Below are positions 6,119 to 28,634 of a DNA stretch of 64,000 nucleotides, piece after piece. Source of the DNA: Comamonadaceae bacterium (GTDB lineage: Bacteria; Pseudomonadota; Gammaproteobacteria; Burkholderiales; Burkholderiaceae_C); the NCBI GenBank assembly GCA_027488215.1, contig JAIYCB010000050.1, forward strand, positions 5,543 through 69,542, in the 5' to 3' direction. The notes beneath the pieces were generated by a model. The model did no database searches. It worked only from the letters and a program-made list of their open reading frames with translations, and was not told the origin of the DNA. Numbering within the stretch: position 1 is the stretch's first letter; the number at the start of each line of letters is the position of its first letter. Made by a program: the position numbers and the translations under genes.

Positions 6119-7579
6119 TCAAGCCAGATGCGGTGGCGGCACAAAGCCGCACCATTCGGTTTCAAGCCAGCGGGCCATGTTCAGACAGAGCGGATCGGCA
6201 AAGGTGTTGCCGATGATTTGCGCGCCGACAGGCAAGCCGCTTGGGCTTTTGCCAATCGGTATGGCGGTGGCAGGCAAGCCCACCACGCCCGGGTAGCCGG
6301 CCCAGAAAAGGCTGTCTGTGTGCGGCTGGTCCTGGCCGTTGACTTGCAACATGCGCTCCCAACGCTCGCCTTGCTGGTTGTGCAAAAAGGCGGGCGATGT
6401 CGCGACCGGGGTGATGAGCAGGTCCACCGACTCGAAATAGCTTTGCCACTGCGCACGCAGTACGGCGCGTTGCTGGTCGAACTCGACCCAGTCGCGGTGC
6501 GTGAGCGTGCTGCCACGCCAGACGCGCTCGCGCATGTTGTCCAGCGCTGGGTCGCTTTGTGCGGCCAGTGTCTGAAAGCGCGCAAAGGTCGCATCGTCCA
6601 GCCAGGCCCCTGTCGCCGAGCGCAGCAGGTGCATATACACGCGGTGCGACTGTGCGCTGTCCACCGGGCGGTGGTCGTCCAGCACGGTCACGCCTTGAGT
6701 GCGTAAAAAGTCGGCCAACGCGTGCAGTCGGTCCTGAATGCTCTGGTCCACCCGCGCTTCGGGGTCGTCGTAGACGATGGCGACGCGGCACTGCCACGGG
6801 GCTTTGTCGGTTTGTCGCCACTGCGCGGGTGTCCAGCCCAGCGGGCCGAACTGTTGCAGGGGCGTGGTCAGCACCTGCATGGCCAGTTGCAAGTCCTGTG
6901 CGCTGCGCGCCAGGGGGCCTGCCACGGCAATGTCCAGGCTGTCGATGCAGCGCACCCCCGGCAGCTGGTGGCCTTGCATGGGCACCAAGCCCCAGGTGGG
7001 CTTATGGCCGTAAACGCCGCAGTAATGCGCCGGGTTGCGGATGGAGGCACCGATGTCGCTGCCCAGTTCCAGCGGTGTCATGTCCGAAGCCAGCGCTGCG
7101 CCGGCCCCGCCTGACGAGCCGCCTGGCGAGCGGCTCAAGTCCCAGGGGTTGTTCGTGGTGCCATAGACCGGATTGAACGACTGCCAGTCGCCCAAAGCCA
7201 CTGGCACATTGGTCTTGCCAAACACCACGGCCCCAGCGTCCAGCAGGCGCTGCACGGCCAAGGCTGGCTGCTGGGCGATGTTGTCTTTGTAATCCGGAAA
7301 GCCCCAGCAGGTGGGCGTGCCTGGTAAATCAAACGATTCCTTCACAGTCATGGGCAGACCGTGTAGCGGACCCCAGTCCTCGCCACGGGCTCGCGCCGCA
7401 TCGGCTTGGGCTGCGCGTGTGCGGGCAGCCTCGAAGCTGCGCACCACCACCGCATTGATCGGGCCGTCCCGCTGCCCCACACGGGCGATGTACTGCTCCA
7501 GCAGCAGGGTGCTGGTGACTTCGCCAGAGCGCAGGCGGGCCATCAGATCGGTGGCGGTGCTGTAAGTGAAATCGGTCAT
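6119..7579 (-). CDS. Amidase-signature family amidase
   Basis: GLPMTVKES (Lys), PGGSSGG, GSDIGASIRNPAHYCG (Ser-cisSer-Lys triad); start MTDFTYS at 7579. Confidence 0.92.
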   Translation of the reverse strand: MTDFTYSTATDLMARLRSGEVTSTLLLEQYIARVGQRDGPINAVVVRSFEAARTRAAQADAARARGEDWGPLHGLPMTVKESFDLPGTPTCWGFPDYKDNIAQQPALAVQRLLDAGAVVFGKTNVPVALGDWQSFNPVYGTTNNPWDLSRSPGGSSGGAGAALASDMTPLELGSDIGASIRNPAHYCGVYGHKPTWGLVPMQGHQLPGVRCIDSLDIAVAGPLARSAQDLQLAMQVLTTPLQQFGPLGWTPAQWRQTDKAPWQCRVAIVYDDPEARVDQSIQDRLHALADFLRTQGVTVLDDHRPVDSAQSHRVYMHLLRSATGAWLDDATFARFQTLAAQSDPALDNMRERVWRGSTLTHRDWVEFDQQRAVLRAQWQSYFESVDLLITPVATSPAFLHNQQGERWERMLQVNGQDQPHTDSLFWAGYPGVVGLPATAIPIGKSPSGLPVGAQIIGNTFADPLCLNMARWLETEWCGFVPPPHLA

Positions 7580-7752
7580 AAGGGACTCAAGTGGCTGGAA
7601 TGAAAAATCGGCATGGCCAGTGGTGTGAGCATGTTTCGGGCGCCCATACCAGCACGGTGGCCATGATCGAAGGTACTTGGTTCTGGGTGGATGTGCGTGT
7701 TGGCCATCGCCTGTGTCATTTTCAGAGTCTGAACAAGACACCCCTCTCTGGG

Positions 7753-7790
7753 TATCGAAAACTTGCAAAACTTGGCATGGGTTTTCCCGA
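7753..7790 (-). promoter_or_regulatory. Putative AraC/XylS-type operator upstream of the amidase
   Basis: Minus strand TCGGGAAAACCC-N11-TGCA-N6-CGATA; same layout and spacing as the 8897-8934 site. Confidence 0.55.
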
Positions 7791-7870
7791 TGCGGGGAGT
7801 GGTTCTCGAGAGGCAGGCATGGCCGCGACCATGGTCAGGAGGGCGGTGAGTTAGGCCTGGTGTGCGGTGC

Positions 7871-8830
7871 TCATCGTTTGTGCAGCGTGTCAGAAGGCAG
7901 TTCGCCAAAAAGGTGACGGTAGTCTTGCGCGAATTGGCTCAGGTGCCAAAAGCCCCAGTGCGAGGCAATGTCCTGGATGGTCACGCCGGGCGCGGCTTGG
8001 CGCAGGGCGCGGCGCACGCTGTTCAGGCGCAGCGAGCGCAGGTACTTGATGGGCGTGGTGCCCAGCACGTCTTGAAAGCAGTAGTTGAGCTTGCGGCGGC
8101 TGGTGCCCACACGGCTGCACACCTCGAGGATGGACAGGGGCTCGTCGGCATGGCCCAGCATCAGCTCGCAGGCGCGGTCCACCAGTTTTTTTCGCCGCTC
8201 CAGGTTGGGCAGTTCAGATGTGTCCACTTGCGGGGGGAGGGCTTCGAGCCATTCCATCAGGATTTCGTCGCGCAACTGGCGAAGGGCCTGAGGGTCGTGC
8301 TGGCGGTGCGCCAGCGCGCTGGCCTGGTCGAGCACGGTGAGCTGCAGGTCTCGCAGGCTCTGCGCTTTGATATCAGTGGTTTGCAACACCAACTGCTTTT
8401 CAAGCCAATGCGCCAAGGGCTTTTGGTACATGCGCTCCCAAAGCGGGTTGAGCAGACTGCGTTCGACCACCACCGCGATCAGCGTGAAATGGGGCGGGGT
8501 GGTCAGGTCCACCTCGTCGCCCTTGCCACACATGATGGCGTGGGCGGGCACCCGTTGGCCGTTGAAAAACAGGTCGGGTGAGTCCTGCAGCGCCATGGCA
8601 AAGCCATAAACGCTCTCATGAAGCCGACCGCGCTGGCGCAGCCCGATGCTGGTGTCCTCGCGCAACATAGTCACTTCCGGCAGCTGCACTTGGTGGATGC
8701 GCCCCTTGAACTGACCGGGTGAGAGCTGCTCGTACTGCAGCGACCAGCCTTGCTGGGCCAGGGCGTGCTGGTCCATGTCCTGGTTGTCCAGCACCTGGAC
8801 CCATGGTGTAACGGGGACGGACGAGCTCAT
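7871..8830 (-). CDS. AraC family transcriptional regulator, EutR-like
   Basis: N-terminal YEQLSPGQFKG cupin-like region; C-terminal HTH SRRKLNYCFQDVLGTTP and WGFWHLSQFAQDYRHLFGELPS; start taken at MSSSVP. Confidence 0.88.
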   Translation of the reverse strand: MSSSVPVTPWVQVLDNQDMDQHALAQQGWSLQYEQLSPGQFKGRIHQVQLPEVTMLREDTSIGLRQRGRLHESVYGFAMALQDSPDLFFNGQRVPAHAIMCGKGDEVDLTTPPHFTLIAVVVERSLLNPLWERMYQKPLAHWLEKQLVLQTTDIKAQSLRDLQLTVLDQASALAHRQHDPQALRQLRDEILMEWLEALPPQVDTSELPNLERRKKLVDRACELMLGHADEPLSILEVCSRVGTSRRKLNYCFQDVLGTTPIKYLRSLRLNSVRRALRQAAPGVTIQDIASHWGFWHLSQFAQDYRHLFGELPSDTLHKR

Positions 8831-8896
8831 CAGAGAAAGAAAATGCGGCGCAAATGCATGTCCCTGAGTGTGCCTGCTTCCGGAGCACAGGTTTTT

Positions 8897-8934
8897 TCGT
8901 GAAAACCCGGGGTCCTCGGTGCCCAAACTTGATA
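8897..8934 (+). promoter_or_regulatory. Putative AraC/XylS-type operator upstream of the GATase-P450 operon
   Basis: TCGTGAAAACCC-N11-TGCC-N6-TGATA, ending 51 bp before ATG 8986; resembles the XylS-type TGCA-N6-GGNTA half site. Confidence 0.55.
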
Positions 8935-8985
8935 GCGCTCCGTACGCCTTGTGCATAGCATGGACAACAGCTTGAAAGAGACCTG

Positions 8986-9714
8986 ATGAAACGATGCATT
9001 GCCGTTTTACTGACCAACAACGACACTTCGCCGTTTGCAGCGCACTTCCCGAACGACGGTCAAAAGGTGGTGCTGCTGCTGCAGCCTTTGCGGCCCGATT
9101 GGACTTATGAGGTCGTGTCGGTCAAGGACGGGGTGTTGCCCGCGAGCCCCGAGGCCTATGACGGCTACGTCATCACCGGCAGCCCGGCCTCGGTCAACGA
9201 CGACCGCCTGCCTTGGGTGGGGCCGCTGCTGGATTTCATCCGGGCCGTGCACGCCGCACGCCAGCCGCTGATCGGCCTGTGCTTTGGCCACCAGGCGGTA
9301 GCCCGGGCTCTGGGCGGGCAGGTGGCGCGCAACGCCGCGGGCTGGGGTCTGGGCACTGCGCCCACGCACTGGCATGCCACACGCCCTTGGATGCAGCCCG
9401 CGCAAAGCACCACCACCTTGATGGCTGCGCACAACGAGCAGGTCACCCGCATGCCCGAAGGCGCGGTCTGTCTGGGCGGCAGTGACTTTTGCCCCATCGG
9501 CTCGATGCAGATCGGCCAGCACATCTGGACCACTCAGTTCCACCCCGAGATGCCGCTGGTGTTCATGCAGGCCTTGTTGGGCTTCCTGGCCGACAAGCTC
9601 GATGCCGAAACGATGGCTCGCGCCCACGCCAGTCTGACCAACGCCGCCGATGTGCCGCTGTTTGGGCACTGGATGGCGCAATTTTTTGAACACGCAAGGA
9701 AAAACAAGCAATGA
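8986..9714 (+). CDS. Class I glutamine amidotransferase-like protein (putative gamma-glutamyl hydrolase)
   Basis: YVITGSPASV, GLCFGHQ (Cys nucleophile), TQFHPE (His-Glu); stop overlaps P450 start (ATGA). Confidence 0.9.
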   Translation: MKRCIAVLLTNNDTSPFAAHFPNDGQKVVLLLQPLRPDWTYEVVSVKDGVLPASPEAYDGYVITGSPASVNDDRLPWVGPLLDFIRAVHAARQPLIGLCFGHQAVARALGGQVARNAAGWGLGTAPTHWHATRPWMQPAQSTTTLMAAHNEQVTRMPEGAVCLGGSDFCPIGSMQIGQHIWTTQFHPEMPLVFMQALLGFLADKLDAETMARAHASLTNAADVPLFGHWMAQFFEHARKNKQ

Positions 9715-10976
9715 CCGTCTGGCATCCCAACGACGATGGCCACGCCGACATCTCCAGACACGACAGCTATCTGAACGGCACGCCGCACAACACCTTCAAG
9801 CGTTTGCGCGACGAAGACCCCATGGCCTGGTGCGACTGGGCTGAGGGCAAGGGCTTCTGGTCGGTCACGCGCCATGCCGATATTTTGGAGCTCAACCGCA
9901 ACCACCAGCGCCTCAGTTCTGCACAGGGCATCCGCATGGAAGACCAGTCGCACGAGGAGTACATGGCGCGGCGGACTTTTCAAGAGACCGACCCGCCCGA
10001 ACACACCCGCACCCGCATGCTGGTGGCCAAGGCCTTTTCCAAGCCCATGATGGCGCTGTACGAAGACCAGATCCGCGAGCTGTGTGTGGGCATCCTCGAT
10101 CAGGCCCTGGCGCTGGGCGAGTTTGACGCCACGCACCAGATCGCCCGCCAGCTGCCCATGCGCATGCTCGGGCGCATCGCGGGCCTGCCTGAGGAGGACC
10201 TGGATTGGCTGGTGGACAAGGGCGATGCACTCATGGCCAACACCGACAGCGACTTCACCAGCCATGTGGTCGACAAAATGGACACCGAGGCCTACCGCTT
10301 CATGCCCTTTCGCTCGCCCGCCGGGGCCGACCTGTTCGACTACGCGGCCCAGCTGATGGAACGCAAGCGCAGCGCGGGCGACACCAGCGGCGTGCTGCAC
10401 CTGATCACCCAGCCCGATGCCCAGGGCCATGTGATCAGCGACACCGAGTTCCGCAACTTCTTTTGTCTGCTGGTGGCCGCGGGCAACGACACCACACGCT
10501 ATTCGATCGCCGCCGCCTTGCATGCGCTGGCCAACCAGCCGGGGCTGATGCAGCAACTCAAGGCGGTGCAGGGCGAAGCGGCTTGGGAGGGCGTGGCCGA
10601 CGAGTTCATCCGCTGGGCTTCACCCGCCACACACTTTCGCCGCACCGCGACCGAAGACTTTGAGTACCACGGCAAACATGTCAAAGCGGGCGACAAGGTG
10701 CTGCTCTGGTTCATCTCTGGCAACCGCGACGAGCGGGCTTTTGACCGGCCGTTCACCGTTGATCTGAGCCGGGGCGTGAACCGCCACCTGGCGTTTGGGC
10801 AGGGCGGGGCGCATGCCTGCTTGGGCATGTGGCTGGCGCGGCTGGAGTTGCGCGTGTTGATGCAAGAGCTGATCAAGCGCGTCGAGCGCATCGAGCAAAC
10901 GGGCGAGCACGCCTTTTTGCGATCCAACTTTGTCTCGGGCATCAAACGTTTGCCCGTGCGCATGCACCTGATCTGA
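9711..10976 (+). CDS. Cytochrome P450
   Basis: I-helix AAGNDTT, ExxR (EFIR), heme ligand FGQGGAHACLG. Confidence 0.96.
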   Translation: MTVWHPNDDGHADISRHDSYLNGTPHNTFKRLRDEDPMAWCDWAEGKGFWSVTRHADILELNRNHQRLSSAQGIRMEDQSHEEYMARRTFQETDPPEHTRTRMLVAKAFSKPMMALYEDQIRELCVGILDQALALGEFDATHQIARQLPMRMLGRIAGLPEEDLDWLVDKGDALMANTDSDFTSHVVDKMDTEAYRFMPFRSPAGADLFDYAAQLMERKRSAGDTSGVLHLITQPDAQGHVISDTEFRNFFCLLVAAGNDTTRYSIAAALHALANQPGLMQQLKAVQGEAAWEGVADEFIRWASPATHFRRTATEDFEYHGKHVKAGDKVLLWFISGNRDERAFDRPFTVDLSRGVNRHLAFGQGGAHACLGMWLARLELRVLMQELIKRVERIEQTGEHAFLRSNFVSGIKRLPVRMHLI

Positions 10977-10987
10977 AAGGAACCACC

Positions 10988-12280
10988 ATGTCGAATGTTC
11001 AAGAACGCCTGCGGGTGCTGTTTTGTGACCACCTGGCCATTGCGCGTGGCAAATACGTCACGCTCCAACCCGGGCAGGGCGGCGGTGCCCGTTTTTGCCG
11101 GGGCACTTTTGGCGTCACTTACGAAAAAGAGCTGATCCCAGCTCCGGGCGCGATGGTCATGGAAGGCCTGCCCGACATGGAGGCCGTCTACACCCCCGAG
11201 GACATCCGCCCCGGCTGGCAGCCGTTCACCCAGGTCGCGGTGGGTGACCTCAAGGCCAACGACGGCACCCCTCTGCCCATGTGCGGGCGCAGTGCCTTGA
11301 AGCGCGCCGTGGCCGACTGGCAAGCCACGGGCTACGACCCGATGGTGGGCATTGAGCTCGAAGCCTTTGCCTTCCAGATCGAGCCCGACGGCTCTCTCAA
11401 ACCTTACGACACGCCTGCAGCCCATGTGTATTCAACCGGTCCATTCTCCGACCCCCGGGGCTTCACCGACGCCCTGTGGGAAAAAGCCACGGCCGCGGGC
11501 TTTCGCATCGACAGCATGAACACCGAATACGACGCGCCGCAGTTCGAGTTCACGCTCACCTACGACCGCGCCGTCAAGGCGGTGGACGACATTTTTTTGT
11601 TCCGTCTGCTGGCGCGTGAGGTGGCTTTTCAGCACGGCATCGTGTTGACCTTCATGCCCAAACCGATCCTCACGGTGGGCGGCAGCGGCGTGCACATCAA
11701 TTTCAGCCTGCGCGACGACCAAGGCCACAACGCGATCTCGGGCGGGCACGACGCCAGCCAGTTCAACGCCTTGACGCTGGGCTGCACCGCCGGGCTGATG
11801 CACCACCACCAGGCGCTGGCGGGTTTATTGGCTCCGTGCGCCAATTCTTACCAACGCCTGCAACCGGCCAGCCTATCGGGTTTCTGGCAAAACTGGGCGG
11901 TGGACCACCGGGGCGTCACGGTGCGCCTGTCGGCCGAAAGCGGCCCCGGCGCGCGCATCGAGCACCGCATGGGCGACGCGGCGGCCAACCCCTACACCCA
12001 CACCGCCGCCGTGCTGCAGGCCGCCCGTCTGGGCGTGGCCAACGCCTATTCACTGCAGCCCATCGAGACCGGCGATTGCCTGGAAAACAAGGACGCCACC
12101 CAAAGCGTGCCGGGCACCTTGGCGGGTGCCTTAGACGCGCTCGAAGCCGACACGGCGCTCACGCAAGCGCTGGGCGAAGGCTTGGTGGCCAACCATGTGG
12201 GCATCAAGCGCCACGAGATCGAACGCACCGCAGGCCTCGAAGGCGACGCGCTGCGCGATCACTACATCCGATTTATCTGA
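10988..12280 (+). CDS. Glutamine synthetase-like protein (putative gamma-glutamyl-amine ligase)
   Basis: GIELEAF, EYDAPQFE, TFMPKP...GSGVHINFSL, RIEHRMGDAAANPY; start MSNVQE after AAGGA RBS. Confidence 0.9.
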   Translation: MSNVQERLRVLFCDHLAIARGKYVTLQPGQGGGARFCRGTFGVTYEKELIPAPGAMVMEGLPDMEAVYTPEDIRPGWQPFTQVAVGDLKANDGTPLPMCGRSALKRAVADWQATGYDPMVGIELEAFAFQIEPDGSLKPYDTPAAHVYSTGPFSDPRGFTDALWEKATAAGFRIDSMNTEYDAPQFEFTLTYDRAVKAVDDIFLFRLLAREVAFQHGIVLTFMPKPILTVGGSGVHINFSLRDDQGHNAISGGHDASQFNALTLGCTAGLMHHHQALAGLLAPCANSYQRLQPASLSGFWQNWAVDHRGVTVRLSAESGPGARIEHRMGDAAANPYTHTAAVLQAARLGVANAYSLQPIETGDCLENKDATQSVPGTLAGALDALEADTALTQALGEGLVANHVGIKRHEIERTAGLEGDALRDHYIRFI

Positions 12281-12298
12281 TCTGAAAGAACCCACCCC

Positions 12299-12613
12299 AT
12301 GCCCCAAGTGCACTGGATCATGAGCAACGGCGAGCGCGTGAGCGATGACGTGAACGACGGCACCAACCTGATGGACGCCGCGCAGATGAACGGCATCCCC
12401 GGCGTGGCGGGCGAATGTGGCGGCTGCCTGTCGTGCGCCACCTGCCATGTGTATGTCGATGAAGCCTGGCTGGTCGCCTGCCCACCGATGGACGAGGTGG
12501 AAAACGCCATGCTGGACATCGTCATCGCACCCCGCCAGACGGGCAGCCGCCTGAGCTGCCAGCTGATCGCGTCGAATGCGCTCGATGGCATCGTGCTGCA
12601 CGTACCTGACTGA
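12299..12613 (+). CDS. 2Fe-2S ferredoxin, putidaredoxin/adrenodoxin type
   Basis: GECGGCLSCATCHVYV and RLSCQL cysteine pattern. Confidence 0.95.
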   Translation: MPQVHWIMSNGERVSDDVNDGTNLMDAAQMNGIPGVAGECGGCLSCATCHVYVDEAWLVACPPMDEVENAMLDIVIAPRQTGSRLSCQLIASNALDGIVLHVPD

Positions 12614-12622
12614 AAGAGATTG

Positions 12623-14107
12623 ATGAAACAAGAACAGATCGACGCGCTGCGCCACCTGCCTATCTCTGATCAGGGTCTGCTGATCGATGGGCAATGGACG
12701 GCTGCGGCATCCGGCCAGAACTTGCCTGTGGTTTCACCCATCGACGGACAACAGCTCTGCACCATCGCCGCTGCCGGACAAACGGATGTCGACCGCGCTG
12801 TGCAGGCGGCCCGGCGCACTTTTGAGCAAGGCGTGTGGTCGCGCATGGCGCCTGCCGAGCGCAAGAAGGTGCTGCACCGCATTGCCGATCGCATTGAGGC
12901 CCACCACGCCGAGCTGGCGGTGCTGGGTGTGCGCGACAACGGCACCGAAATTGCCATGGCCTGGAAGGCCGAGCCGGGCAGCGCGGCGGGCACCTTCCGC
13001 TACTACGCCGAGTGCGTGGACAAGATCAATGGCGAGATCGCACCGACCCCCGAGGGCACCTTGGGGCTGATCCACAAGGAGCCGGTGGGCGTGGTCGCGG
13101 CCATCGTGCCGTGGAACTTTCCTTTGATGATCGGCGCCTGGAAGATCGCCCCTGCGCTGGCGGCAGGCAACTCGTTGGTGCTCAAACCCTCCGAAGACGC
13201 GTCGCTTTCTTTGTTGCGTCTCGCACAGCTGTGTTTGGATGCGGGCTTGCCACCGGGCGTGCTCCATGTGGTCACGGGCACGGGCGCAGAGGCAGGTGAA
13301 GCGTTGGCGCGGCACATGGACGTGGACATCCTCACTTTCACTGGCTCCGGCCCGGTGGGGCGCCTGTTGCTCAAGGCTTCGGCTGAATCCAACCTCAAGC
13401 GGGTGTATCTGGAGCTGGGGGGCAAGTCGCCCAACATCGTTTTTGATGATGCGCCCGATCTGGCGCAGGCCGCCAAAGTCTCGGCCATGGGCATCTTCCG
13501 CAACAGCGGGCAGGTGTGTGTGGCGGGCTCGCGCTTGCTGGTGCAGCGCTCGGTGCATGACGAATTTGTGGAGCGTCTGCACAAGATCGCGGCCAACCTG
13601 CGCGTGGGTGACCCGCTGGATGTGACGACCGAGATCGGTGCGGTGAGCAGCGCCCGGCAATTGGCCAAAAATTTGGCTGCGGTGCAGACCGCGCAGCACC
13701 AGGGCGCTCGCCTGCGCGTGGGCGGCGGGGTTTTGCAACCCGTGGCGGGCGGAAGTTACATGGCACCTGCTTTGTTTGACCGTGTGACGCCCGACATGAC
13801 CTTGGCACGCGAAGAAGTCTTTGGCCCGGTGCTGGCGGTCTTGCCCTTTGACGACGAGGCCGAGGCGGTGCGCCTGGCCAACGATTCGACCTATGGCCTG
13901 GCGTCTGCCGTGTGGACCGGCAGCCTCTCGCGTGCGCATCGCATGGTGCGCGCCATCAAGGCTGGGGTGGTGCACGTCAACACCTACGGCGGCCCTGATG
14001 TGACGGTGCCGCTGGGCGGCGTGCGGCAGTCGGGCAATGGGCACGACAAATCGATGCACGCCATGGACAAATACCTGGACCTGAAGACCGCCTGGATTCA
14101 GCTCTGA
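12623..14107 (+). CDS. Aldehyde dehydrogenase, PuuC-like
   Basis: IVPWNFPL, FTGSGPVG, LELGGKSP, NSGQVCVAG (catalytic Cys), EEVFGPV. Confidence 0.93.
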   Translation: MKQEQIDALRHLPISDQGLLIDGQWTAAASGQNLPVVSPIDGQQLCTIAAAGQTDVDRAVQAARRTFEQGVWSRMAPAERKKVLHRIADRIEAHHAELAVLGVRDNGTEIAMAWKAEPGSAAGTFRYYAECVDKINGEIAPTPEGTLGLIHKEPVGVVAAIVPWNFPLMIGAWKIAPALAAGNSLVLKPSEDASLSLLRLAQLCLDAGLPPGVLHVVTGTGAEAGEALARHMDVDILTFTGSGPVGRLLLKASAESNLKRVYLELGGKSPNIVFDDAPDLAQAAKVSAMGIFRNSGQVCVAGSRLLVQRSVHDEFVERLHKIAANLRVGDPLDVTTEIGAVSSARQLAKNLAAVQTAQHQGARLRVGGGVLQPVAGGSYMAPALFDRVTPDMTLAREEVFGPVLAVLPFDDEAEAVRLANDSTYGLASAVWTGSLSRAHRMVRAIKAGVVHVNTYGGPDVTVPLGGVRQSGNGHDKSMHAMDKYLDLKTAWIQL

Positions 14108-14124
14108 AAAACCAAGAGAACACC

Positions 14125-15489
14125 ATGAACAACGACCAACTCAAGGCCGACAATGCCCAATACCTGTGGCACCCCATGGCCCACCCGGGGGCGATGAAAA
14201 AATCCACGCCCGACATCATCGCCAAGGGCGAAGGCTGCTGGATCTGGGACGTGGACGGCCACAAGATGCTCGATGGCGTGGGGGGCCTGTGGGCCTGTAA
14301 TCTGGGTCACAGCAACAAGCCGGTGCGCGACGCCATCGTGGCGCAGATGGACGAGCTGCCCTTTTACAACGTGTTTCGCGGCACCACCCATGTGCGGGCG
14401 ATCGAATTGTCCAAGCGATTGGTCCAATTGATGCAGCCCGAGGTCGTGGCCACGGTGATGTTTTCTACTGGCGGCTCTGACGCGGTGGAAGGTGCGCTGA
14501 AAGTGGCGCGCCAGTACTGGAAGCTCAAGGGCCAGGCAGACCGCTTCAAGTTCATCAGCCTGCGCCAGGGCTACCACGGCGTGCACTTTGGCGGCATGAG
14601 CGTGAACGGCAACACCAACTTCCGCCGCGCCTACGAGCCCTTGCTGCCCGGGTGCTTTCACATCGACACGCCCTGGGCTTATCACAACCCCTACACAGAT
14701 GACCCGATCCGCTTGGGCGAAATCTGCGCCGAGCTGCTGGAGCGCGAAATCGTGTTCCAGGGGCCGGACACGGTGGCAGCCTTCATCGCCGAGCCGGTGC
14801 AGGGTGCGGGCGGCGTGATCGTGCCGCCCCCCAACTACTGGCCGCTGGTGCGCCAGATTTGCGACAAGTACGGCGTGCTGCTGATTGCCGACGAGGTGGT
14901 GACCGGTTTTGGCCGCAGTGGCGAGCTGTTCGGCACGCGCCTGTGGGGCGTGAATGCTGACATGTGGTGCCTGGCCAAGGGCATTTCTTCGGGCTACATC
15001 CCCTTGGGGGCCACGGCCATCAACCGCCGCATTGCCGAGGTGTTTGACGCAGACACCACAGGCACGGCCTCGGTCTCGCACGGCTACACCTACAGCGCCC
15101 ACCCGATCGCAGCCGCTGCGGCGCTGGCCACACTCGACCAGATCGAGGCGCTGGACATTCCGGGCAACGCCGCCCGCGTGGGTGCGCACCTTCAGACCCG
15201 CTTGCGCAAACTGGTGGATACCTGCAGCTTTGTGGGCGACGTGCGGGGCGTGGGCCTGATGCTGGGCATCGAGATGGTGAGCGACAAGGCTAAACGCACG
15301 CCCATGGCCCGCAGCAGCGACATCCCGGCGCGGGTGGCCAAGGCAGCCTACAAGGCGGGCCTGATGGTGCGCATTTCCGGGCCCAACCTGATCCTGTCAC
15401 CGCCGCTGGTCATCACCCGTGAGGAGGTGGACTTCATGTGCGATGTGCTCGAAGGTGCGTTTGCCGCGGTGCAGGAGGGCCGGGCATGA
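14125..15489 (+). CDS. Class III (omega-amine) PLP aminotransferase
   Basis: GGLWACNLGH, GYHGVHFG, FIAEPVQGAGG, DEVVTGFGRSG, LAKGI (PLP Lys), HGYTYSAHP. Confidence 0.94.
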   Translation: MNNDQLKADNAQYLWHPMAHPGAMKKSTPDIIAKGEGCWIWDVDGHKMLDGVGGLWACNLGHSNKPVRDAIVAQMDELPFYNVFRGTTHVRAIELSKRLVQLMQPEVVATVMFSTGGSDAVEGALKVARQYWKLKGQADRFKFISLRQGYHGVHFGGMSVNGNTNFRRAYEPLLPGCFHIDTPWAYHNPYTDDPIRLGEICAELLEREIVFQGPDTVAAFIAEPVQGAGGVIVPPPNYWPLVRQICDKYGVLLIADEVVTGFGRSGELFGTRLWGVNADMWCLAKGISSGYIPLGATAINRRIAEVFDADTTGTASVSHGYTYSAHPIAAAAALATLDQIEALDIPGNAARVGAHLQTRLRKLVDTCSFVGDVRGVGLMLGIEMVSDKAKRTPMARSSDIPARVAKAAYKAGLMVRISGPNLILSPPLVITREEVDFMCDVLEGAFAAVQEGRA

Positions 15490-16745
15490 CGAGCCCTGTC
15501 ATCTTGATCGTGGGCACCGTCGACACCAAGAGCGACGAGATCGGCTTCATGCGCGAGCAGGTGCAAGCCGCAGGCGGGCAGGCGCTGATCATGGACGTGG
15601 GGGTGCTGGCCAAAGGGCAGGTGACGCCCGATGTGGCCAACACCGATGTGGCCCAAGCCGCAGGCGTAACGCTGCAGCAGGTGATGGACAGCGGCGACGA
15701 AAACAGCGCCATGGCCTTGATGGCCCAAGGTGCCAGCGTTCTGGCCGCCGAGATGCACCGGGAAGGGCAGATCGACGGCTTGCTGGTGCTGGGCGGCACC
15801 ATGGGCACCGACCTGGCGCTCGACGTGGCCAGCAGCTTGCCGCTGGGCGTGCCCAAGGTGGTGTTGTCCACGGTGGCGTTTTCGCCCCTGTTGCCGCCCG
15901 AGCGCATGCCGCCCGATTTGATGATGGTGCTGTGGGCAGGCGGTCTGTACGGCCTCAACAGCCTGTGCCAGTCTGCCTTGGCGCAAGCCGCAGGGGCAGT
16001 GGTGGGGGCTTGCCGCGTGGCGCGCGTGCCGCGCTTTGAACGGCCGGTGGTGGGCATGACCTCATTGGGTTCGAGCTGTCTGAAATACATGGTGCAACTC
16101 AAACCCGAACTCGATCAACGTGGTTTTGATTTGGCGGTCTTCCACACCACAGGCATGGGGGGCCGGGCTTTTGAATCGCTGGCCGCGCAAGGCCAGTTCG
16201 CCTGCGTGATGGACTTCAGCCTGCAGGAGCTGGTCAACCAGATGGGCGGCTCGGTGGTGAGTGCCGGGCCTGACCGTTTGATGGGTGCTGGCCTGAAAGG
16301 CGTACCTATGATCGTCGCCCCCGGGGCCACCGATCTGGTGGACTACCCAGCCTGGGGCGATATGCCCAGCCGCTTTGCCGGGCGGCCCTCGCATGACCAC
16401 AACCGTTTGATCGCCTCGGTGGGCATCGACGCCGACATGCGCCGCGAATTCGCTCGCGAGATGGCCAGCCGCTTGCGCAAGGCCAAAGGCCCGGTGCACC
16501 TGGTGCTGCCTTTGCAAGGCATCGAAGAGTGGGACCGACCCGGTGCGCCGATGCACGATGCCGAAGGCCTGGCTGCACTCATGGACGAATGCGGCCAATG
16601 CGATTGGGGCGCGGCCGAGGTCTCGCGCATCGACGCCCACATCAACGACGCGGCGTTTGTGCAGCAGGTGCTTTCGGTGTTCGACGATTGGCTGGCCAAA
16701 GGGCTGGTGGTGTCTGCTGCGGGCATGAAAGTGACCCATGTCTGA
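15486..16745 (+). CDS. Tm-1-like ATP-binding domain protein (UPF0261)
   Basis: IVGTVDTKSDE N-terminal motif, GGTMGT, LPLGVPKVVLST, FHTTGMGGRAFE, IDAHIND; ATG overlaps aminotransferase stop. Confidence 0.85.
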   Translation: MTSPVILIVGTVDTKSDEIGFMREQVQAAGGQALIMDVGVLAKGQVTPDVANTDVAQAAGVTLQQVMDSGDENSAMALMAQGASVLAAEMHREGQIDGLLVLGGTMGTDLALDVASSLPLGVPKVVLSTVAFSPLLPPERMPPDLMMVLWAGGLYGLNSLCQSALAQAAGAVVGACRVARVPRFERPVVGMTSLGSSCLKYMVQLKPELDQRGFDLAVFHTTGMGGRAFESLAAQGQFACVMDFSLQELVNQMGGSVVSAGPDRLMGAGLKGVPMIVAPGATDLVDYPAWGDMPSRFAGRPSHDHNRLIASVGIDADMRREFAREMASRLRKAKGPVHLVLPLQGIEEWDRPGAPMHDAEGLAALMDECGQCDWGAAEVSRIDAHINDAAFVQQVLSVFDDWLAKGLVVSAAGMKVTHV

Positions 16746-17406
16746 TGCGTTGCGGCCCGAAGACAAGGCCCTGATTCTGGACTTTGGCGGCGTCATCAGC
16801 CGCACCCTGTTTGAAACCCATGCCTTGAGCGAGACCGCTTTGGGCTTGGCTGCCGGAACGCTGACCTGGCAAGGCCCGTTTGCGCCTGACACCGATGCGC
16901 TGTGGCAAGCCATGCAGGCCGATCAGATCAGTGAACGCGATTACTGGATGCAGCGCACCCGCGAGGTCGGACGTTTGTTGGGTGAAGACTGGACCGAGAT
17001 GCAAACCTTTGTGCAGCGCGCTCGGGGGGCTGATGTTGCGGCTGTGATCCGGCCTGAGGCGGTGGCGGCCATTCACCAGGCCAAGGCGCTGGGCTACAAG
17101 TTGGGCATTTTGTCCAACGAGCTGGATCTGTTTTATGGCGCGGATTTTCGCGAGCGTTTGCCCTTGCTCCAACAGTTTGACGTGATCGTGGACGCCACCT
17201 ACACTCAGATCCTCAAACCTGATCCACGCGCTTACCAAGCTTGTTTGCAAGCCTTGGGGGTGCGGGCCGAGCATGCGACTTTTGTTGACGACCAACTGCG
17301 TAACGTGGCGGGGGCACAGCGCTGCGGCCTGCCGGTGGTGCATTTGGATGTTTGCCAACCCGGTGTCGGTTTTGCAAAAGCCCTGCAGATGCTGGCGGGG
17401 TTGTGA
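16738..17406 (+). CDS. HAD-IA family hydrolase/phosphatase
   Basis: ILDFGGV (motif I variant), LSNE (II), KPDPRAY (III), FVDD (IV). Confidence 0.85.
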   Translation: MSDALRPEDKALILDFGGVISRTLFETHALSETALGLAAGTLTWQGPFAPDTDALWQAMQADQISERDYWMQRTREVGRLLGEDWTEMQTFVQRARGADVAAVIRPEAVAAIHQAKALGYKLGILSNELDLFYGADFRERLPLLQQFDVIVDATYTQILKPDPRAYQACLQALGVRAEHATFVDDQLRNVAGAQRCGLPVVHLDVCQPGVGFAKALQMLAGL

Positions 17407-17569: not shown

Positions 17570-18565
17570 ATGAACGATTGGAACCCATCGGGCCAACGCC
17601 GCGATTTTTTGAAGGCCATGGCCGCCGTGACGGCTACCTTGCCCCTCTGGGTACAAGCCCAAAGCAACTGGCCCTCCAAATCGGTGACCATGGTCGTGCC
17701 TTTCCCTGCTGGTGGCGGTACCGATGCGTTTGCAAGGCCATTGTCTGCCCAGTTTGCCAAGCTGACGGGCAAACAACTCATCATTGACAACCGGGGAGGC
17801 GCGGGCGGCACTTTAGGCGCTGGCGTGGCCGCCAAATCGGCGCCCGATGGCTACAACTTGTTCATGGGCGCGGTACACCACACCATTGCGCCCAGCATGT
17901 ACCCCAAGCTCGATTACGACCTGGAGCGTGACCTGACTCCCCTGATTTTGGTAGCCAATGTGCCCCAAGTGCTGGTGGTCAACCCGAGGAAAGTGCAGGT
18001 GGCGGACTTCAAGGCTTTCCTGGAAATGGTCAAGAAGAACCCTGGGCGCCTGAATTACGGTTCAGCAGGCGGTGGCACTTCTCATCATTTGGCAGGAGAA
18101 TTGTTCAAGCTGCAGACCCAAACCTTCATTACCCATATCCCCTACCGCGGCGCTGGCCCAGCCCTTCAAGATCTGATTGCCGGCAATGTGGACATGATGT
18201 TCGATGGCTTGGGTTCCTCAGCTGCGCACATCAAAGGTGGTCGCATCAAGGCCCTCATGGTTTCAGGCGCTAAACGCAACGCGGCTTTCCCGGATGTGCC
18301 GTGTTCTGCCGAGTTGGGTTTGCCCGATTACACCGTGTCCACTTGGTATGGCGTTTGGGCACCTAAAGGCACGCCCGCTGACGCCCAGACTCGGGCCATC
18401 GAAGAGATTCGCCGTGCCTGCCAGACCGATGAGGCCAAAGCCGTCTGGGCCAACCAAGGAGCGGAATTCCCCAACCTCACCACCTCCCAATTTGAAGCTT
18501 TCATCAAGAAAGAACTGGCCAAGTGGTCACAAGTGGTCAAGGCCTCGGGGGCCAAGCTCGACTGA
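17570..18565 (+). CDS. Bug/TctC tripartite tricarboxylate transporter substrate-binding protein
   Basis: Tat-like RRDFLK signal, VVPFPAGGGTD, DNRGGAGG, IPYRGAGPALQDL. Confidence 0.92.
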   Translation: MNDWNPSGQRRDFLKAMAAVTATLPLWVQAQSNWPSKSVTMVVPFPAGGGTDAFARPLSAQFAKLTGKQLIIDNRGGAGGTLGAGVAAKSAPDGYNLFMGAVHHTIAPSMYPKLDYDLERDLTPLILVANVPQVLVVNPRKVQVADFKAFLEMVKKNPGRLNYGSAGGGTSHHLAGELFKLQTQTFITHIPYRGAGPALQDLIAGNVDMMFDGLGSSAAHIKGGRIKALMVSGAKRNAAFPDVPCSAELGLPDYTVSTWYGVWAPKGTPADAQTRAIEEIRRACQTDEAKAVWANQGAEFPNLTTSQFEAFIKKELAKWSQVVKASGAKLD

Positions 18566-18584
18566 TTTTGGCACTGCATGCATC

Positions 18585-18607
18585 GGGCCTGTGCGCAGGC
18601 CCTTTTT
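18585..18607 (+). terminator. Intrinsic terminator-like hairpin between Bug gene and matB
   Basis: GGGCCTG-tgcg-CAGGCCC-TTTTT. Confidence 0.65.
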
Positions 18608-18627
18608 CACGCTTTCAATTTGAAACC

Positions 18628-20187
18628 ATGACCCACTCCAACTTGTTTTCCGCGCTTCGTGCGGCCTTTCCTGCCGATCTGAGCTCCATAGCCGTCGAAA
18701 CCGATGAAGGCCTGTTGTACAGCTGGCAGGACCTGGACCGCGCCACGGCCATGATGGCCAATTTGCTGCAGTCGCTGGATTTGCCTGAAGGCAGTCGGGT
18801 GGCGGTACAGGTCGAAAAATCGGTCGAAGCGATGATGCTGTACTTGGCCACACTCCGTGCTGGCTATGTCTTTTTGCCGCTGAACACCGCTTACCAAAGC
18901 GCTGAGATCGAGTACTTCATTGGCAATGCCGAGCCTGCTGTGGTGGTGTGCAGCCCTGCCAATTTTGGCTGGGTCAGCAAGATCGCTTTCAAGGCCGGCA
19001 CGCAGCATGTGTTTACCTTGGGCGATGACCGCACGGGCAGCTTGCTCGAGCGAGCCGCCCACCACAGTGACCAACACAAGCCCGTGCCGTGCCAAGCCGA
19101 TGACCTGGCCGCCATTTTGTACACCAGTGGTACTACGGGGCGCAGCAAGGGGGCCATGCTCACGCACGGCAACATGCTGAGCAATGCTGTCACGCTCAAG
19201 GATTACTGGGGCTGGACGGCGACCGGAGGGCCTACAGGCCAGGGCGATGTGCTCATCCATGCCTTGCCCATCTTTCATGTGCACGGTTTGTTTGTGGCCA
19301 TCCATGGCGCGTTGATCAACGGCAGCAAGATGATCTGGATGGCCAAGTTCGAGCCTAAGCGAGCCATTGCGCACATGAGTCGTGCCACCGTTTTCATGGG
19401 GGTGCCTACGCTGTATGTGCGCATGCTGGCAGAACCGACGCTGAACAAAGAGGCTGTCAAGAACATGCGCTTGTTCATCGCTGGGTCAGCCCCCTTGCTG
19501 ATCGAGACCTTCACCGAATGGCAGCAGCGCACCGGGCACACCATTTTGGAGCGCTATGGGATGAGCGAGACCGCCATGTTGACCTCCAACCCCTATGCAG
19601 CGGACAAGCGCTATGCGAAGCAGTCCGAGCGTCGTGGTGGCACGGTGGGTTTTCCCTTGCCGGGCGTGTCTTTGCGGGTGCGTGGGGACGATGGGCAAGA
19701 CATGCCCCTGGGCGAGATTGGCGGTATTCAGGTCAAGGGTCCGAATGTCTTCAAAGGCTACTGGCGCATGCCCGAGAAAACGGCTGAAGAATTCACGGCT
19801 GACGGCTTTTTCAAGACGGGCGATGTGGGCAAGGTCGATGAACGCGGCTACGTGACCATCGTGGGTCGCAGCAAAGACCTCATCATCAGCGGCGGCTACA
19901 ACGTCTATCCTGCAGAGATCGAAGGCTATATCAACGAGATGCCTGGCGTGACCGAAAGCGCTGTGATTGGTGTGCCCCATCCCGACTTTGGCGAGGTGGG
20001 CGTGGCAGTGGTCATTGCCAAACCAGGCGCCAACCTGAAGCCAGAAGCCATCCTGGCCGATCTCAAAGCCAAGCTGGCCAACTTCAAAATTCCAAAGCGT
20101 TGTTTTGTCGTGGCCGAGTTGCCGCGCAACACCATGGGCAAAGTGCAGAAAAACCTGCTGCGCGAGCAATACAAAAACCTGTTTTAG
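18628..20187 (+). CDS. matB: Malonyl-CoA synthetase (MatB-like acyl-CoA ligase)
   Basis: YLATLRAGYVFLPLNTAY, YTSGTTGRSKGAMLTH, HALPIFHVHGLFVA, ILERYGMSET, LPRNTMGKVQK. Confidence 0.85.
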   Translation: MTHSNLFSALRAAFPADLSSIAVETDEGLLYSWQDLDRATAMMANLLQSLDLPEGSRVAVQVEKSVEAMMLYLATLRAGYVFLPLNTAYQSAEIEYFIGNAEPAVVVCSPANFGWVSKIAFKAGTQHVFTLGDDRTGSLLERAAHHSDQHKPVPCQADDLAAILYTSGTTGRSKGAMLTHGNMLSNAVTLKDYWGWTATGGPTGQGDVLIHALPIFHVHGLFVAIHGALINGSKMIWMAKFEPKRAIAHMSRATVFMGVPTLYVRMLAEPTLNKEAVKNMRLFIAGSAPLLIETFTEWQQRTGHTILERYGMSETAMLTSNPYAADKRYAKQSERRGGTVGFPLPGVSLRVRGDDGQDMPLGEIGGIQVKGPNVFKGYWRMPEKTAEEFTADGFFKTGDVGKVDERGYVTIVGRSKDLIISGGYNVYPAEIEGYINEMPGVTESAVIGVPHPDFGEVGVAVVIAKPGANLKPEAILADLKAKLANFKIPKRCFVVAELPRNTMGKVQKNLLREQYKNLF

Positions 20188-23388: not shown

Positions 23389-23397
23389 GAAAGCGAC

Positions 23398-23535
23398 ATG
23401 GACATTCTGTATTTGTTGATTCCACTTTCAGTGGCCTTGGTGTTTTTCATACTCGCCGGTCTTTGGTGGGCTATCCATCGCGGGCAATTTGAGGACATTG
23501 AGGTCGAAGGCGAGCGAATTTTGCGTGACGATTGA
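23398..23535 (+). CDS. ccoS: cbb3 oxidase maturation protein (45 aa, absent from ORF track)
   Basis: Hand translation [45 protein letters not shown] with the family WA...GQF(E/D)D motif. Confidence 0.92.
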
Positions 23536-23545
23536 TTTTGATCAA
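23532..23545. promoter_or_regulatory. Perfect FNR box upstream of ccoN, overlapping the ccoS stop codon
   Basis: TTGAT-tttg-ATCAA, 64 bp before the ccoN ATG. Confidence 0.88.
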
Positions 23546-23609
23546 GTGTTCAGGATGTACACCCGGGCAAACTCATTCGGTAGATTTTTTAAAAAAGCAA
23601 GAGGTAAAA

Positions 23610-25049
23610 ATGAAATTTGCCAACATGCAGGCAGGGTCCTACAACGACAAGGTTGTCAGGCAGTTCGCCATCATGACGGTGGTGTGGGGTGTGGTGGGCA
23701 TGCTGGTGGGTGTGATCATTGCGGCCCAACTGACATGGCCAGAACTTAACTTCGGCGTTTCCTGGCTCAGCTATGGCCGCTTGCGGCCCTTGCACACCAA
23801 TGCCGTGATCTTTGCGTTCGGCGGTTGTGGCTTGTTCGCAGCCGCCTATTACGTGGTGCAGCGCACCTGCAATGTGCGACTGATCAGCGATAAGCTGGCG
23901 GCTTTCACGTTTTGGGGTTGGCAATTGGTGATTGTTTTGGCGGCCATCTCTTTGCCATTGGGTTTCACCAGCGGTAAAGAGTATGCCGAGTTGGAGTGGC
24001 CGATTGACATCCTGATCACCTTGGTCTGGGTGGCATTCGCTGTGGTGTTCTTTGGCACCATTGGCACGCGCAAGGTGCGCCACATCTATGTGGCCAACTG
24101 GTTTTTTGGTGCTTTCATCATTGCTGTGGCTTTACTGCACATCGTCAACAGCGCGGCCTTGCCCGTGGGAATGATGAAGTCGTATTCAGCCTATGCCGGT
24201 GTGCAGGACGCCATGGTGCAGTGGTGGTACGGCCACAATGCGGTAGGTTTTTTCTTGACCGCAGGCTTCCTGGGCATGATGTATTATTTCATCCCCAAGC
24301 AAGCCGAGCGCCCTGTGTACTCGTATCGCTTGTCGATCGTGCACTTCTGGGCCCTGATCTTTACCTACATGTGGGCCGGTCCTCACCACCTGCATTACAC
24401 CGCATTGCCTGACTGGACCCAGTCCGTCGGCATGGTTTTCTCCTTGATCCTCTTGGCGCCCAGCTGGGGCGGCATGATCAACGGCATCATGACTTTGTCG
24501 GGCGCATGGCACAAACTGCGTGATGACCCGATCTTGCGCTTTTTGATCGTGTCCCTGTCGTTCTACGGCATGTCCACCTTTGAAGGGCCGATGATGTCCA
24601 TCAAGACCGTCAACGCCCTGAGCCACTACACCGACTGGACCGTGGGCCATGTGCACTCGGGTGCCCTGGGTTGGGTCGGTCTCGTGACCATGGGCTCGAT
24701 GTACTACCTGATTCCTCGTCTGTTTGGCCAAAAACAGATGTACAGCGTCAAAGCCATTGAAGTCCACTTTTGGACCGCCACCATCGGCATCGTGATCTAC
24801 ATCGCTGCCATGTGGATTGCCGGTGTGATGCAAGGTTTGATGTGGCGCGCCATCAATGCCGATGGCACCTTGACCTACACCTTTGTGGAATCGGTCAAAG
24901 CCACTTACCCGTTCTATGTGCTGCGGTTGCTCGGTGGTTTGCTGTATTTCGGGGGCATGGTGATCATGTTGTGGAACACCTTCAAGACCGTCACGCAAGG
25001 TCGTTCGGTGGAAGTCCGCATCCCCATACTCACACCCGCCCACGCCTGA
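23610..25049 (+). CDS. ccoN: cbb3-type cytochrome c oxidase subunit I
   Basis: [45 protein letters not shown]. Confidence 0.97.
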
Positions 25050-25062
25050 GGAGAAAAACAAC

Positions 25063-25689
25063 ATGGCTGAAATTCAAAAAACGGGCGGTCTCTCGCACGA
25101 GAAAGTCGAGACCAACAATTTCCTGATGATCGTGTTGATCTTGGTGGTTCTGTTGGTGGGCGGCATGGTCGAAATCCTGCCGCTGTTCTTCCAGAAATCC
25201 ACCACCGAGCCGGTGCCTGGCCTCAAGCCCTACACCGCTTTGCAAGTGGCTGGGCGTGATGTGTATGTGCGTGAAGGTTGCTACAACTGCCACTCGCAGA
25301 TGATTCGCCCCTTCCGTGCCGAGACCTTGCGCTACGGCGCTTACTCGCTGGCCGGTGAATTCGTTTATGACCGTCCCTTCCAATGGGGAAGCAAGCGCAC
25401 CGGCCCTGATCTGGCCCGCGTAGGTGGTCGCTACAGTGACGAATGGCATCGCATTCACCTGATCAATCCACGTGATCTGGTGCCCGAGTCGAACATGCCC
25501 GCTTACCCCTGGCTGGATAAAACGCCTGCCGATGCAGGCTCCATACAAGCGCACATGAAAGGGTTGCGCACGCTGGGCGCACCGTACAGCGAGGAAGAAA
25601 TCGCCAAGGCCCCGCAAGCGTTGAAAGACAAGTCTGAACTCGATGCCGTCATTGCCTATTTGCAAGTCTTGGGCACACACCGCAAATAA
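25063..25689 (+). CDS. ccoO: cbb3-type cytochrome c oxidase subunit II
   Basis: [34 protein letters not shown]. Confidence 0.97.
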
Positions 25690-25698
25690 GGAACGGCC

Positions 25699-25839: not shown

Positions 25840-25874
25840 GCTGTCCTTCAGAACATAAAAAACAAGGAATCCCC

Positions 25875-26807: not shown

Positions 26808-26865
26808 TGCAACGCTTCTTGCGGCAGGTCTGCTTTGCTGCAGGATTTGAATCAAGGCCTGTGTT

Positions 26866-28323: not shown

Positions 28324-28352
28324 AGGGTGGATCCCTTTTCAGAAAGACAAAC

Positions 28353-28628: not shown

Positions 28629-28634
28629 CTCGGG

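Follow-up and report, generated by a model that had tools for sequence, protein, structure and literature searches.

A Two-Module Operon With Glutamine Synthetase-Like and Cytochrome P450 Genes in Limnohabitans and a Proposed Role in Arylethylamine Catabolism

Introduction

Which amine would a bacterium process with a glutamine-synthetase-like (GS-like) ligase, a cytochrome P450, and a UPF0261 (Tm-1-like) protein encoded in a single operon? The question is raised by a 64-kb stretch of contig JAIYCB010000050.1 from a Comamonadaceae bacterium (hereafter the window). Eight co-oriented genes in it encode, in order, a class I glutamine amidotransferase-fold (GATase) hydrolase, a P450, a GS-like ligase, a 2Fe-2S ferredoxin, an NAD(P) aldehyde dehydrogenase (ALDH), a class III aminotransferase, a UPF0261 protein, and a HAD-IA hydrolase, with an AraC-type regulator and an amidase upstream. 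A preliminary description of this DNA had read the genes as a linear gamma-glutamylation plus P450 pathway, Puu-like in its order, for an amine or amide. Our comparisons retain the glutamyl-tag and P450 logic, with a composition that fits both the isopropylamine (ipu) and the aniline systems, but resolve the operon into two fused modules; in place of the linear order for an aliphatic or cyclic amine, comparative genomics gives homoprotocatechuate (hpa) and DOPA decarboxylase contexts. We propose a pathway of arylethylamine catabolism, a proposal that we hold to be evenly poised between right and wrong, in which the amine would be glutamylated, hydroxylated by the P450 to the catechol level, untagged, and then transaminated and oxidized to homoprotocatechuate, with transient O-phosphorylation. 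Judging from sequence comparisons, tyramine- and dopamine-type amines are the most likely substrates.

Conservation and Architecture of the Operon

All ten genes named in the preliminary description were recovered in our listing of open reading frames (ORFs) and in Pfam and NCBIfam scans. Its claim of eight co-oriented genes with overlaps or gaps below 20 bp was borne out, as every junction is an overlap or a gap of at most 18 nt (-4, +11, +18, +6, +17, -4, and -8 nt in order from the GATase to the HAD gene). The ATGA overlaps were seen by direct reading of the sequence.

Many Limnohabitans isolates and metagenome-assembled genomes (MAGs) have P450s 93-97% identical to that of the window, which identifies the window as DNA of a freshwater Limnohabitans (Comamonadaceae). 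The source genome has 3.07 Mb and is 90.5% complete. The P450 has relatives in 567 or more species genomes, and the P450/GS-like pair likewise occurs in 567 species or more. Evenly drawn samples showed the P450 to be scarce, with carriers numbering 6 among 401 Pseudomonadota genomes and 5 among 151 genera of the family. Of the Limnohabitans-clade loci, 19 have 8 kb or more of flank on both sides; all 19 kept the eight-gene order, a conservation far beyond chance, while an ortholog of the regulator was present in 16 and one of the amidase in 10. The expectation that the genes would co-occur in other genomes was thereby confirmed. Limnohabitans parvus II-B4 (locus L021) is one carrier of the operon.

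For a wider view, genes were called and clustered in 80 related loci, and gene pairs were counted over 78 of them. The P450 adjoins the GS-like gene in 73 of the 78 loci and has the GATase gene beside it in 51. A ferredoxin follows the GS-like gene in 46 loci, a putidaredoxin-reductase-type reductase was found in 14, and the HAD gene accompanies the UPF0261 gene in 34. The GS-like ligase, class I P450, ferredoxin, and GATase are a conserved unit.

The loci fall into three architectures. Type A, in Burkholderiales including the window, has an AraC regulator and the order GATase, P450, GS-like ligase, ferredoxin, ALDH, aminotransferase, UPF0261, and HAD, plus an upstream unit of amidase, TctC, and DUF2817 genes. 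Type B, in Dongiaceae and Rhodospirillales, has a MarR regulator and an operon of ALDH, LigB, FAH, ADC-like protein, sometimes a decarboxylase, P450, GS-like ligase, ferredoxin, and reductase, together with an amino-acid permease and a second P450. Type C, in Rhizobiales and roseobacters (for example, on the megaplasmid of Ruegeria sp. TM1040), has a GntR regulator with a divergent GATase gene and P450-GS-ferredoxin genes, and nearby an IclR regulator with aminotransferase, UPF0261, and HAD genes as well as a TctCBA-ALDH set. The P450 tree tracks taxonomy and no long branch splits the architectures, which makes a common substrate class likely.

Some loci vary on these plans. A ferredoxin reductase gene, absent from the window operon, follows the GS-like gene in the variants L012 (Limnohabitans sp. 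DM1), L031, and L034 (a Hydrogenophaga MAG), and L012 has in addition an inserted APC-family amino-acid permease, which the window operon also lacks. One contig labeled as an Akkermansia muciniphila MAG (L023) holds a Limnohabitans-type operon with a 95% identical P450; this label is probably a binning or labeling error.

Two Modules and Their Genomic Neighborhoods

The operon is made of two fused modules, the GS-like/P450/ferredoxin/GATase unit and an ALDH-aminotransferase-UPF0261-HAD unit (hereafter module 2). The UPF0261 subfamily NF002676 was over its cut-off in 16 of the 401 sampled Pseudomonadota genomes, and the P450 was present in five of those 16. We inspected seven of the eleven UPF0261-positive, P450-free genomes. 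Orthologs of the UPF0261 protein and the ALDH were present in all seven, of the aminotransferase in six, and of the HAD protein in four, and module 2 was accompanied by an IclR regulator (six by blast filter) and by a permease or TctA. Module 2 adjoins hpaD/E/F in five of these genomes (hpaG/H too in three), with identities there of 54-56% for the UPF0261 protein, 62-70% for the ALDH, 49-53% for the aminotransferase, and ~64% for the HAD protein, and in two it stands beside an ortholog of DOPA decarboxylase; the neighboring decarboxylase scored 729.5 bits against a solved DOPA decarboxylase. The occurrence of module 2 without the P450, beside hpa genes and DOPA decarboxylase, points to a module leading from a dopamine-type amine to homoprotocatechuate, an arylacetate. 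Conversion of dopamine-type amines to arylacetates is, on the sequence comparisons, its most likely function, and the P450/GS/ferredoxin/GATase unit is best read as an add-on that feeds or parallels module 2.

The two modules and the hpa genes also come together. Three loci (L063, L076, and L050) contain the P450/GS pair, module 2 genes, and hpa genes, with L076 lacking the UPF0261 gene. HpaD and HpaH of L063 each scored 412 bits, over cut-off, and homologs of both were found in L076 and of HpaD in L050. In Dongiaceae, the P450/GS pair lies inside one hpa-like ring-cleavage operon in which DOPA decarboxylase is optional. The scores of this type B operon are all under cut-off (ALDH, 536 bits against HpaE; LigB, 142 against HpaD_Fe; FAH, 209 against HpaG), and its ADC-like protein resembles MppR. 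Homologs of DOPA decarboxylase on plasmids stood in unrelated contexts.

We also evaluated whole carrier genomes for homoprotocatechuate dioxygenases. In ten type A genomes, we found no canonical HpaD (TIGR02295). The E. coli-type HpaD_Fe (TIGR02298) was over cut-off in 9 of 12 Burkholderiales genomes carrying the operon, and the hpaG-E-D-H-I cluster is present in full in one complete Limnohabitans genome (G331). With one genome per genus sampled from the family, HpaD_Fe was present in 46 of 151 and in all four P450 carriers other than the source genome, a co-occurrence that is supportive only, as the carriers are kin and not independent.

A second, unrelated P450 (~395 aa) lies beside the permease or ALDH of the dopamine-type module in seven loci (L054, L059, L062, L063, L070, L121, and L125) and was found even in genomes without the P450/GS pair.

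Predicted Functions of the Encoded Proteins

Gene content, conservation, modularity, neighborhoods, and catalytic motifs are observed; the reactions and substrates given here are all ones that we infer, beginning with the proteins of the P450 unit. The GATase (8986-9714, plus strand; PF00117, 54 bits) has the motifs GLCFGHQ and FHPE with an intact Cys-His-Glu triad and is probably a gamma-glutamyl-amide hydrolase. The P450 (9711-10976, plus) carries the heme loop FGQGGAHACLG, the I-helix motif AGNDTT, and an EFIR motif. Its nearest natural solved relatives are CYP268A2 (217 bits), CYP126 (207), CYP124 (197), and CYP125 (188-190), and a reconstructed CYP125 ancestor scored 306 bits where natural members scored 188-217 bits; membership in one CYP family is by convention set at 40% identity or more, and the comparison here is by bit score only. 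The GS-like ligase (10988-12280, plus; Gln-synt_C, 238 bits), whose ATG is preceded by AAAGGAA, had no match to Gln-synt_N in the Pfam scan and remained under the NCBIfam cut-offs for GGputSyn (183 of 650 bits) and GS III (186 of 470). It is equidistant (108-130 bits) from true glutamine synthetase, glutamate-methylamine ligase, and the solved GS-like proteins 4hpp and 8wwu. The last two, deposited in the PDB as "Probable glutamine synthetase" and "Glutamine synthetase" and which we take to be PA5508 and NpaA1, respectively, score only 108 bits and are no nearer than true glutamine synthetase. The protein is probably a gamma-glutamyl-amine synthetase. The 2Fe-2S ferredoxin (12299-12613, plus; PF00111, 33.8 bits) is the predicted redox partner of the P450 in a class I-type system.

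Module 2 begins with the ALDH (12620-14107, plus; Aldedh, 553 bits), a probable arylacetaldehyde dehydrogenase. Its earlier label as PuuC-like holds in that PuuC is its best NCBIfam match, but the 561.6 bits fall short of the cut-off of 850; the score for StyD (462.5 bits) is under cut-off as well. The aminotransferase (14125-15489, plus) is of the omega-amine:pyruvate type (NF005683, 709 bits, cut-off 575), and its nearest structures are true omega-transaminases (5lh9, 513 bits; 6s54, 504 bits). An alternative pairing of the UPF0261 protein as an amino-alcohol kinase with the class III enzyme as a phospho-lyase was ruled out by these nearest structures (504-513 bits).

The UPF0261 protein (15486-16745, plus) was over cut-off for PF06792 (143.6 bits), PF23189 (202.9 bits), and NF002676 (578 bits, cut-off 556). 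The only characterized UPF0261 enzyme is MarK, a kinase that acts on the phenolic hydroxyl of acetovanillone and of related aromatics; in the MarK/AcvF acetovanillone pathway of Novosphingobium aromaticivorans, a phosphatase later removes the phosphate (PMC12624787). An E16K change in MarK raised its rate ~1600-fold (PMC12624787). The window protein scores 190.8 bits against MarK (PDB 9MPY), and both have the ATP-site Lys, the Gly and His phenol ligands (Gly195 and His219 in MarK), and the stacking His. Across 39 orthologs, K15 (at the position of MarK E16K), G195 and H220 (the phenol-oxygen ligands), and H305 (the stacking His) are invariant. The MarK pocket is altered, with Trp349 always in place of the ketone ligand His348 and Asp286 always in place of Ile285, and no AcvCDE carboxylase is encoded near the window operon. 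An invariant acidic residue such as Asp286 would suit a cationic phenolic amine, and the protein is probably an ATP-dependent kinase for such a compound. The HAD-IA hydrolase (16738-17406, plus; PF00702, 65.5 bits), with motifs I to IV reading DFGGV, LSNE, LKPD, and FVDDQ, is probably a phosphatase. As the preliminary description had noted, neither the Tm-1-like nor the HAD gene belongs to the known precedents.

Proposed Pathway

In the proposed pathway, the GS-like ligase would link the amine, at the cost of ATP, to the gamma-carboxyl of glutamate, and the P450, fed by the ferredoxin, would hydroxylate the glutamyl amide. The preferred site would be ring C3, so that gamma-glutamyl-tyramine would yield gamma-glutamyl-dopamine. 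The GATase-fold hydrolase would take the glutamyl tag off, the transaminase would convert the free amine to the arylacetaldehyde, and the ALDH would oxidize this to 3,4-dihydroxyphenylacetate (homoprotocatechuate), whose ring would be cleaved by hpa genes encoded elsewhere. The UPF0261 kinase and the HAD protein would probably put a phosphate on, and later remove it from, a phenolic hydroxyl. The amidase may liberate the amine from an N-acyl conjugate.

A more specific version of this pathway, which we advance tentatively and consider rather doubtful, has one molecule carrying two removable protecting groups, a gamma-glutamyl group on the amine and a phosphate on the phenolic or catechol oxygen. 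The former would let the P450 hydroxylate the ring without quinone cyclization, and the latter would shield the catechol during transamination and oxidation of the toxic aldehyde (DOPAL). A literature search that covered KU43P, glutamylpiperidide, and the catabolism of glutamyl-tyramine and glutamyl-dopamine found no paper describing a route of this kind.

Tyramine, dopamine, and L-DOPA are signaling molecules, allelochemicals, and cuticle precursors, and are released by algae, plants, and invertebrates. If the version with two protecting groups is true, it would provide the first physiological role for this branch of UPF0261 and a widespread bacterial route for recycling these three compounds. 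The pathway would be a second, previously undescribed recycling route, present in at least 567 species, besides that of amine oxidases or dehydrogenases with HpaBC. Among its carriers are Limnohabitans, which are abundant in fresh water, as well as marine roseobacters, rhizobia, and Dongiaceae. The pathway would also extend the logic of protecting, oxidizing, and deprotecting past xenobiotic alkylamines and anilines, and a large P450 family, a deep GS-like clade, and the UPF0261 kinase branch would each gain a substrate class open to testing. The enzymes are potentially useful for regioselective hydroxylation of arylethylamines.

Several observations weigh against arylethylamine catabolism. 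Among solved P450s, the closest ones hydroxylate alkyl groups and steroid side chains rather than rings. Most of the neighborhood support was drawn from other lineages, where the P450 is 65-75% identical. In the source genome, within its 90.5% completeness, we found no HpaD of either type, no hpa cluster, no counterpart of the G331 hpa region, and no DOPA decarboxylase; either the hpa genes are in the missing 10% or the strain harvests nitrogen only. No ferredoxin reductase is encoded in the window, and neither a putidaredoxin-reductase-type partner nor a Reductase_C domain was found anywhere in the source genome, where the one reductase candidate is a generic Pyr_redox_2 protein beside a second P450/ferredoxin pair on contig C28; this protein might serve as the reductase in trans. 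Motif I of the HAD protein (DFGGV) is without the usual second Asp in the window protein and its orthologs alike, and this protein may follow a chemistry unlike that of standard phosphatases; such a motif I presumably also occurs in the phosphatase YihX. The HpaB-type 4-hydroxyphenylacetate hydroxylase is not anticorrelated with the P450 (HpaB_N occurs in two P450 carriers, against a background of 20 of 151). Finally, if dopamine reaches the Dongiaceae operon by way of DOPA decarboxylase, a P450 that hydroxylates C3 would be left without a task.

Complementarity between HpaB and the P450 had looked promising in the phylum sample and failed in the family sample. The contig C28 region (~22100-31200) encodes a P450 33% identical and a 2Fe-2S ferredoxin 44% identical to those of the operon, along with a flavin monooxygenase-like protein, a short-chain dehydrogenase (SDR), an alcohol dehydrogenase, two TctC receptors, and the Pyr_redox_2 oxidoreductase. 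The only extradiol set found in the source genome lies on contig C17 (~51600-56200), where a protocatechuate 4,5-dioxygenase beta subunit (577 bits) neighbors a dehydrogenase and a lactone hydrolase-like gene; an intradiol enzyme is encoded in the genome as well.

Alternative Explanations

The Dongiaceae operon encodes DOPA decarboxylase, the GS-like ligase, and the P450, and has no transaminase, amine oxidase, or GATase, although dopamine has yet to be made into a substrate for ring cleavage. Because it is without a transaminase and a GATase, it is better explained by a mechanism in which, for the same substrates, hydroxylation by the P450 falls on the carbon adjacent to the amide nitrogen and the carbinolamide breaks down to the arylacetaldehyde and free glutamine. 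The ligase and P450 would together be an ATP-driven oxidative deaminase, as is thought for aniline dioxygenase, and the GATase merely a safety valve or glutaminase. The same set of GS-like and GAT-like proteins, oxygenase, and redox partner makes up the aniline and naphthylamine systems, whose GAT-like protein is dispensable, and a Novosphingobium locus (L005) has two ALDHs, the number that this mechanism needs. Most Dongiaceae operons, however, have one ALDH, and in the window and in the alphaproteobacterial type the transaminase ortholog would make the same aldehyde; in the window operon it would be redundant. The LigB, FAH, and ALDH of Dongiaceae fall under the Hpa cut-offs, as expected for an analog rather than for homoprotocatechuate itself. 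We regard attack at the alpha carbon, the main rival, as unlikely.

Quite improbable, in our judgment, is the Puu-like route, in which the P450 would replace PuuB to give a gamma-glutamyl amino-aldehyde from an aliphatic or cyclic amine (pyrrolidine, piperidine, or putrescine), and the ALDH, GATase, and transaminase would act as PuuC, PuuD, and PuuE. The enzyme classes do match PuuA-E one to one: the window has ligase, ALDH, GATase-type hydrolase, and class III transaminase classes in common with the E. coli pathway, and PuuC is the ALDH's best NCBIfam match (561.6 bits). That the nearest solved P450s are aliphatic hydroxylases and that the source genome is without hpa genes would also suit this route. 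The window nevertheless has no PuuB oxidase gene, with a P450 and ferredoxin instead; PuuD is a C26 peptidase and none is present; and neither the GGputSyn (183 of 650) nor the PuuC (561.6 of 850) cut-off was reached. The kinase and HAD protein would be left without a role, and orthologs of module 2 lie beside hpa genes and DOPA decarboxylase, those of the P450/GS pair within ring-cleavage operons. This aromatic context demoted ring opening of pyrrolidine or piperidine to a minor rival. That the modules are mere neighbors serving unrelated substrates, or that the cluster is biosynthetic for a gamma-glutamyl or catechol metabolite, we consider very improbable. The modules occur apart from each other in many genomes, and in Alphaproteobacteria each has its own regulator, but in Burkholderiales they are translationally coupled and joined in 19 of 19 loci, and in Roseobacter and Rhizobiales genomes they stand, variously arranged, within 10 kb. 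The cluster contains no genes for a biosynthetic scaffold.

Comparison With Known Systems

The ipu clusters of Paenarthrobacter aurescens TC1 lie on plasmids pTC1 and pTC2, and ipuC encodes a gamma-glutamylisopropylamide synthetase (PMC1713258). On pTC1, ipuC is accompanied by genes for a P450, ferredoxin, ferredoxin reductase, GATase-type proteins, and ALDHs (PMC1713258), classes that match the window. The logic of tagging, oxidizing, and untagging is common to both. Identities to the pTC1 proteins are 27-29% (29% for the GS-like ligase and IpuC, 28% for the P450, 28% for the GATase), and the small pTC1 ferredoxin gave no match to the window ferredoxin. The ipu comparison of the preliminary description did not hold at the level of orthology, since at these identities the window system is analogous and not orthologous. 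The window also differs from Ipu in that it lacks a reductase gene, adds a transaminase, a UPF0261 kinase, a HAD protein, and an amidase, and belongs to an aromatic rather than an alkylamine genomic context. The enzymology of an isopropylamine pathway was reportedly worked out in an original study of Pseudomonas sp. KIE171.

The aniline and 1-naphthylamine dioxygenases (AtdA1-A5, TdnQTA1A2B, and NpaA1-A5) share with the window a design of GS-like and GAT-like proteins, an oxygenase, and an electron-transfer partner, which in their case is directed at an aromatic amine. In these systems, the GAT-like protein holds glutamyl amide levels down and is dispensable (PMC11335346). As oxygenase they have a Rieske dioxygenase, with attack at the nitrogen-bearing carbon, whereas the window has a P450 and a substrate whose amine probably sits on an ethyl side chain. 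The Pfam scan found no Rieske protein in the window operon, where the P450 takes its place.

The known route for tyramine- and dopamine-type amines consists of an amine oxidase or dehydrogenase together with an ALDH, plus HpaBC acting on the free acid, without glutamylation, a P450, or a kinase. A route of this type from 2010 (cited in PMC10606097) has, as far as that account goes, the same proposed substrates and the same homoprotocatechuate/hpa funnel. Unlike the known amine oxidase/HpaBC route, the source genome is without hpa genes.

Regulation and Flanking Genes

Upstream of the operon, the AraC-family regulator gene (7871-8830, minus strand; HTH_18, 79.9 bits) belongs to an ORF that extends to 8956; a start at 8830 leaves a divergent promoter region of 155 nt. 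The regulator is EutR-like in its N-terminal part and AraC in type, in agreement with its first annotation, but it is not EutR (166.7 bits against an NCBIfam cut-off of 319). The gene beyond it encodes an amidase-signature amidase (6119-7579, minus; Pfam Amidase, 310 bits; NCBIfam NF004816, 573 bits, cut-off 503), whose ORF extends to 7768 with the NCBIfam alignment beginning only at residue 65. Among solved structures, the amidase comes nearest to ClbL (314 bits), followed by the urethanases UMG-SP1-3 (284-289 bits).

The 12-mer TCGKGAAAACCC has exactly two perfect matches across the 64-kb window. One (TCGGGAAAACCC, 7779-7790, minus) is ~200 nt upstream of the amidase start, and the other (TCGTGAAAACCC, 8897-8908, plus) is 78 nt upstream of the GATase start. 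With up to one mismatch allowed, 21 related loci have a plus-strand copy in front of the GATase gene, always equally far from it. On the minus strand, a copy was found in 11 related loci, ~3.2-5.4 kb upstream of the P450 start, and in loci with the amidase it is located between the regulator side and the amidase gene. The 12-mer is probably a site of the AraC-type regulator, which would probably govern the operon and the amidase through this common motif. Its recurrence before both supports a single regulon including the amidase, and the suggestion that the amidase is part of the system was upheld by the shared motif. The amidase is probably an accessory gene co-regulated with the operon.

Terminator-like sites were no commoner in our consensus scan than in shuffled sequence (15 found, 11.4 expected), and the strongest candidate (18585-18602) lies past the gene that follows the operon. 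A TctC receptor and an AMP-dependent ligase are encoded downstream of the operon (17570-20187). Sister Limnohabitans genomes have GntR, malonyl-CoA decarboxylase, TctC, and ligase genes at this spot. We considered the TctC and AMP-ligase genes as operon members and ruled them out, as they travel with GntR and malonyl-CoA decarboxylase in the sister genomes; by sequence, they look like a malonate-utilization unit.

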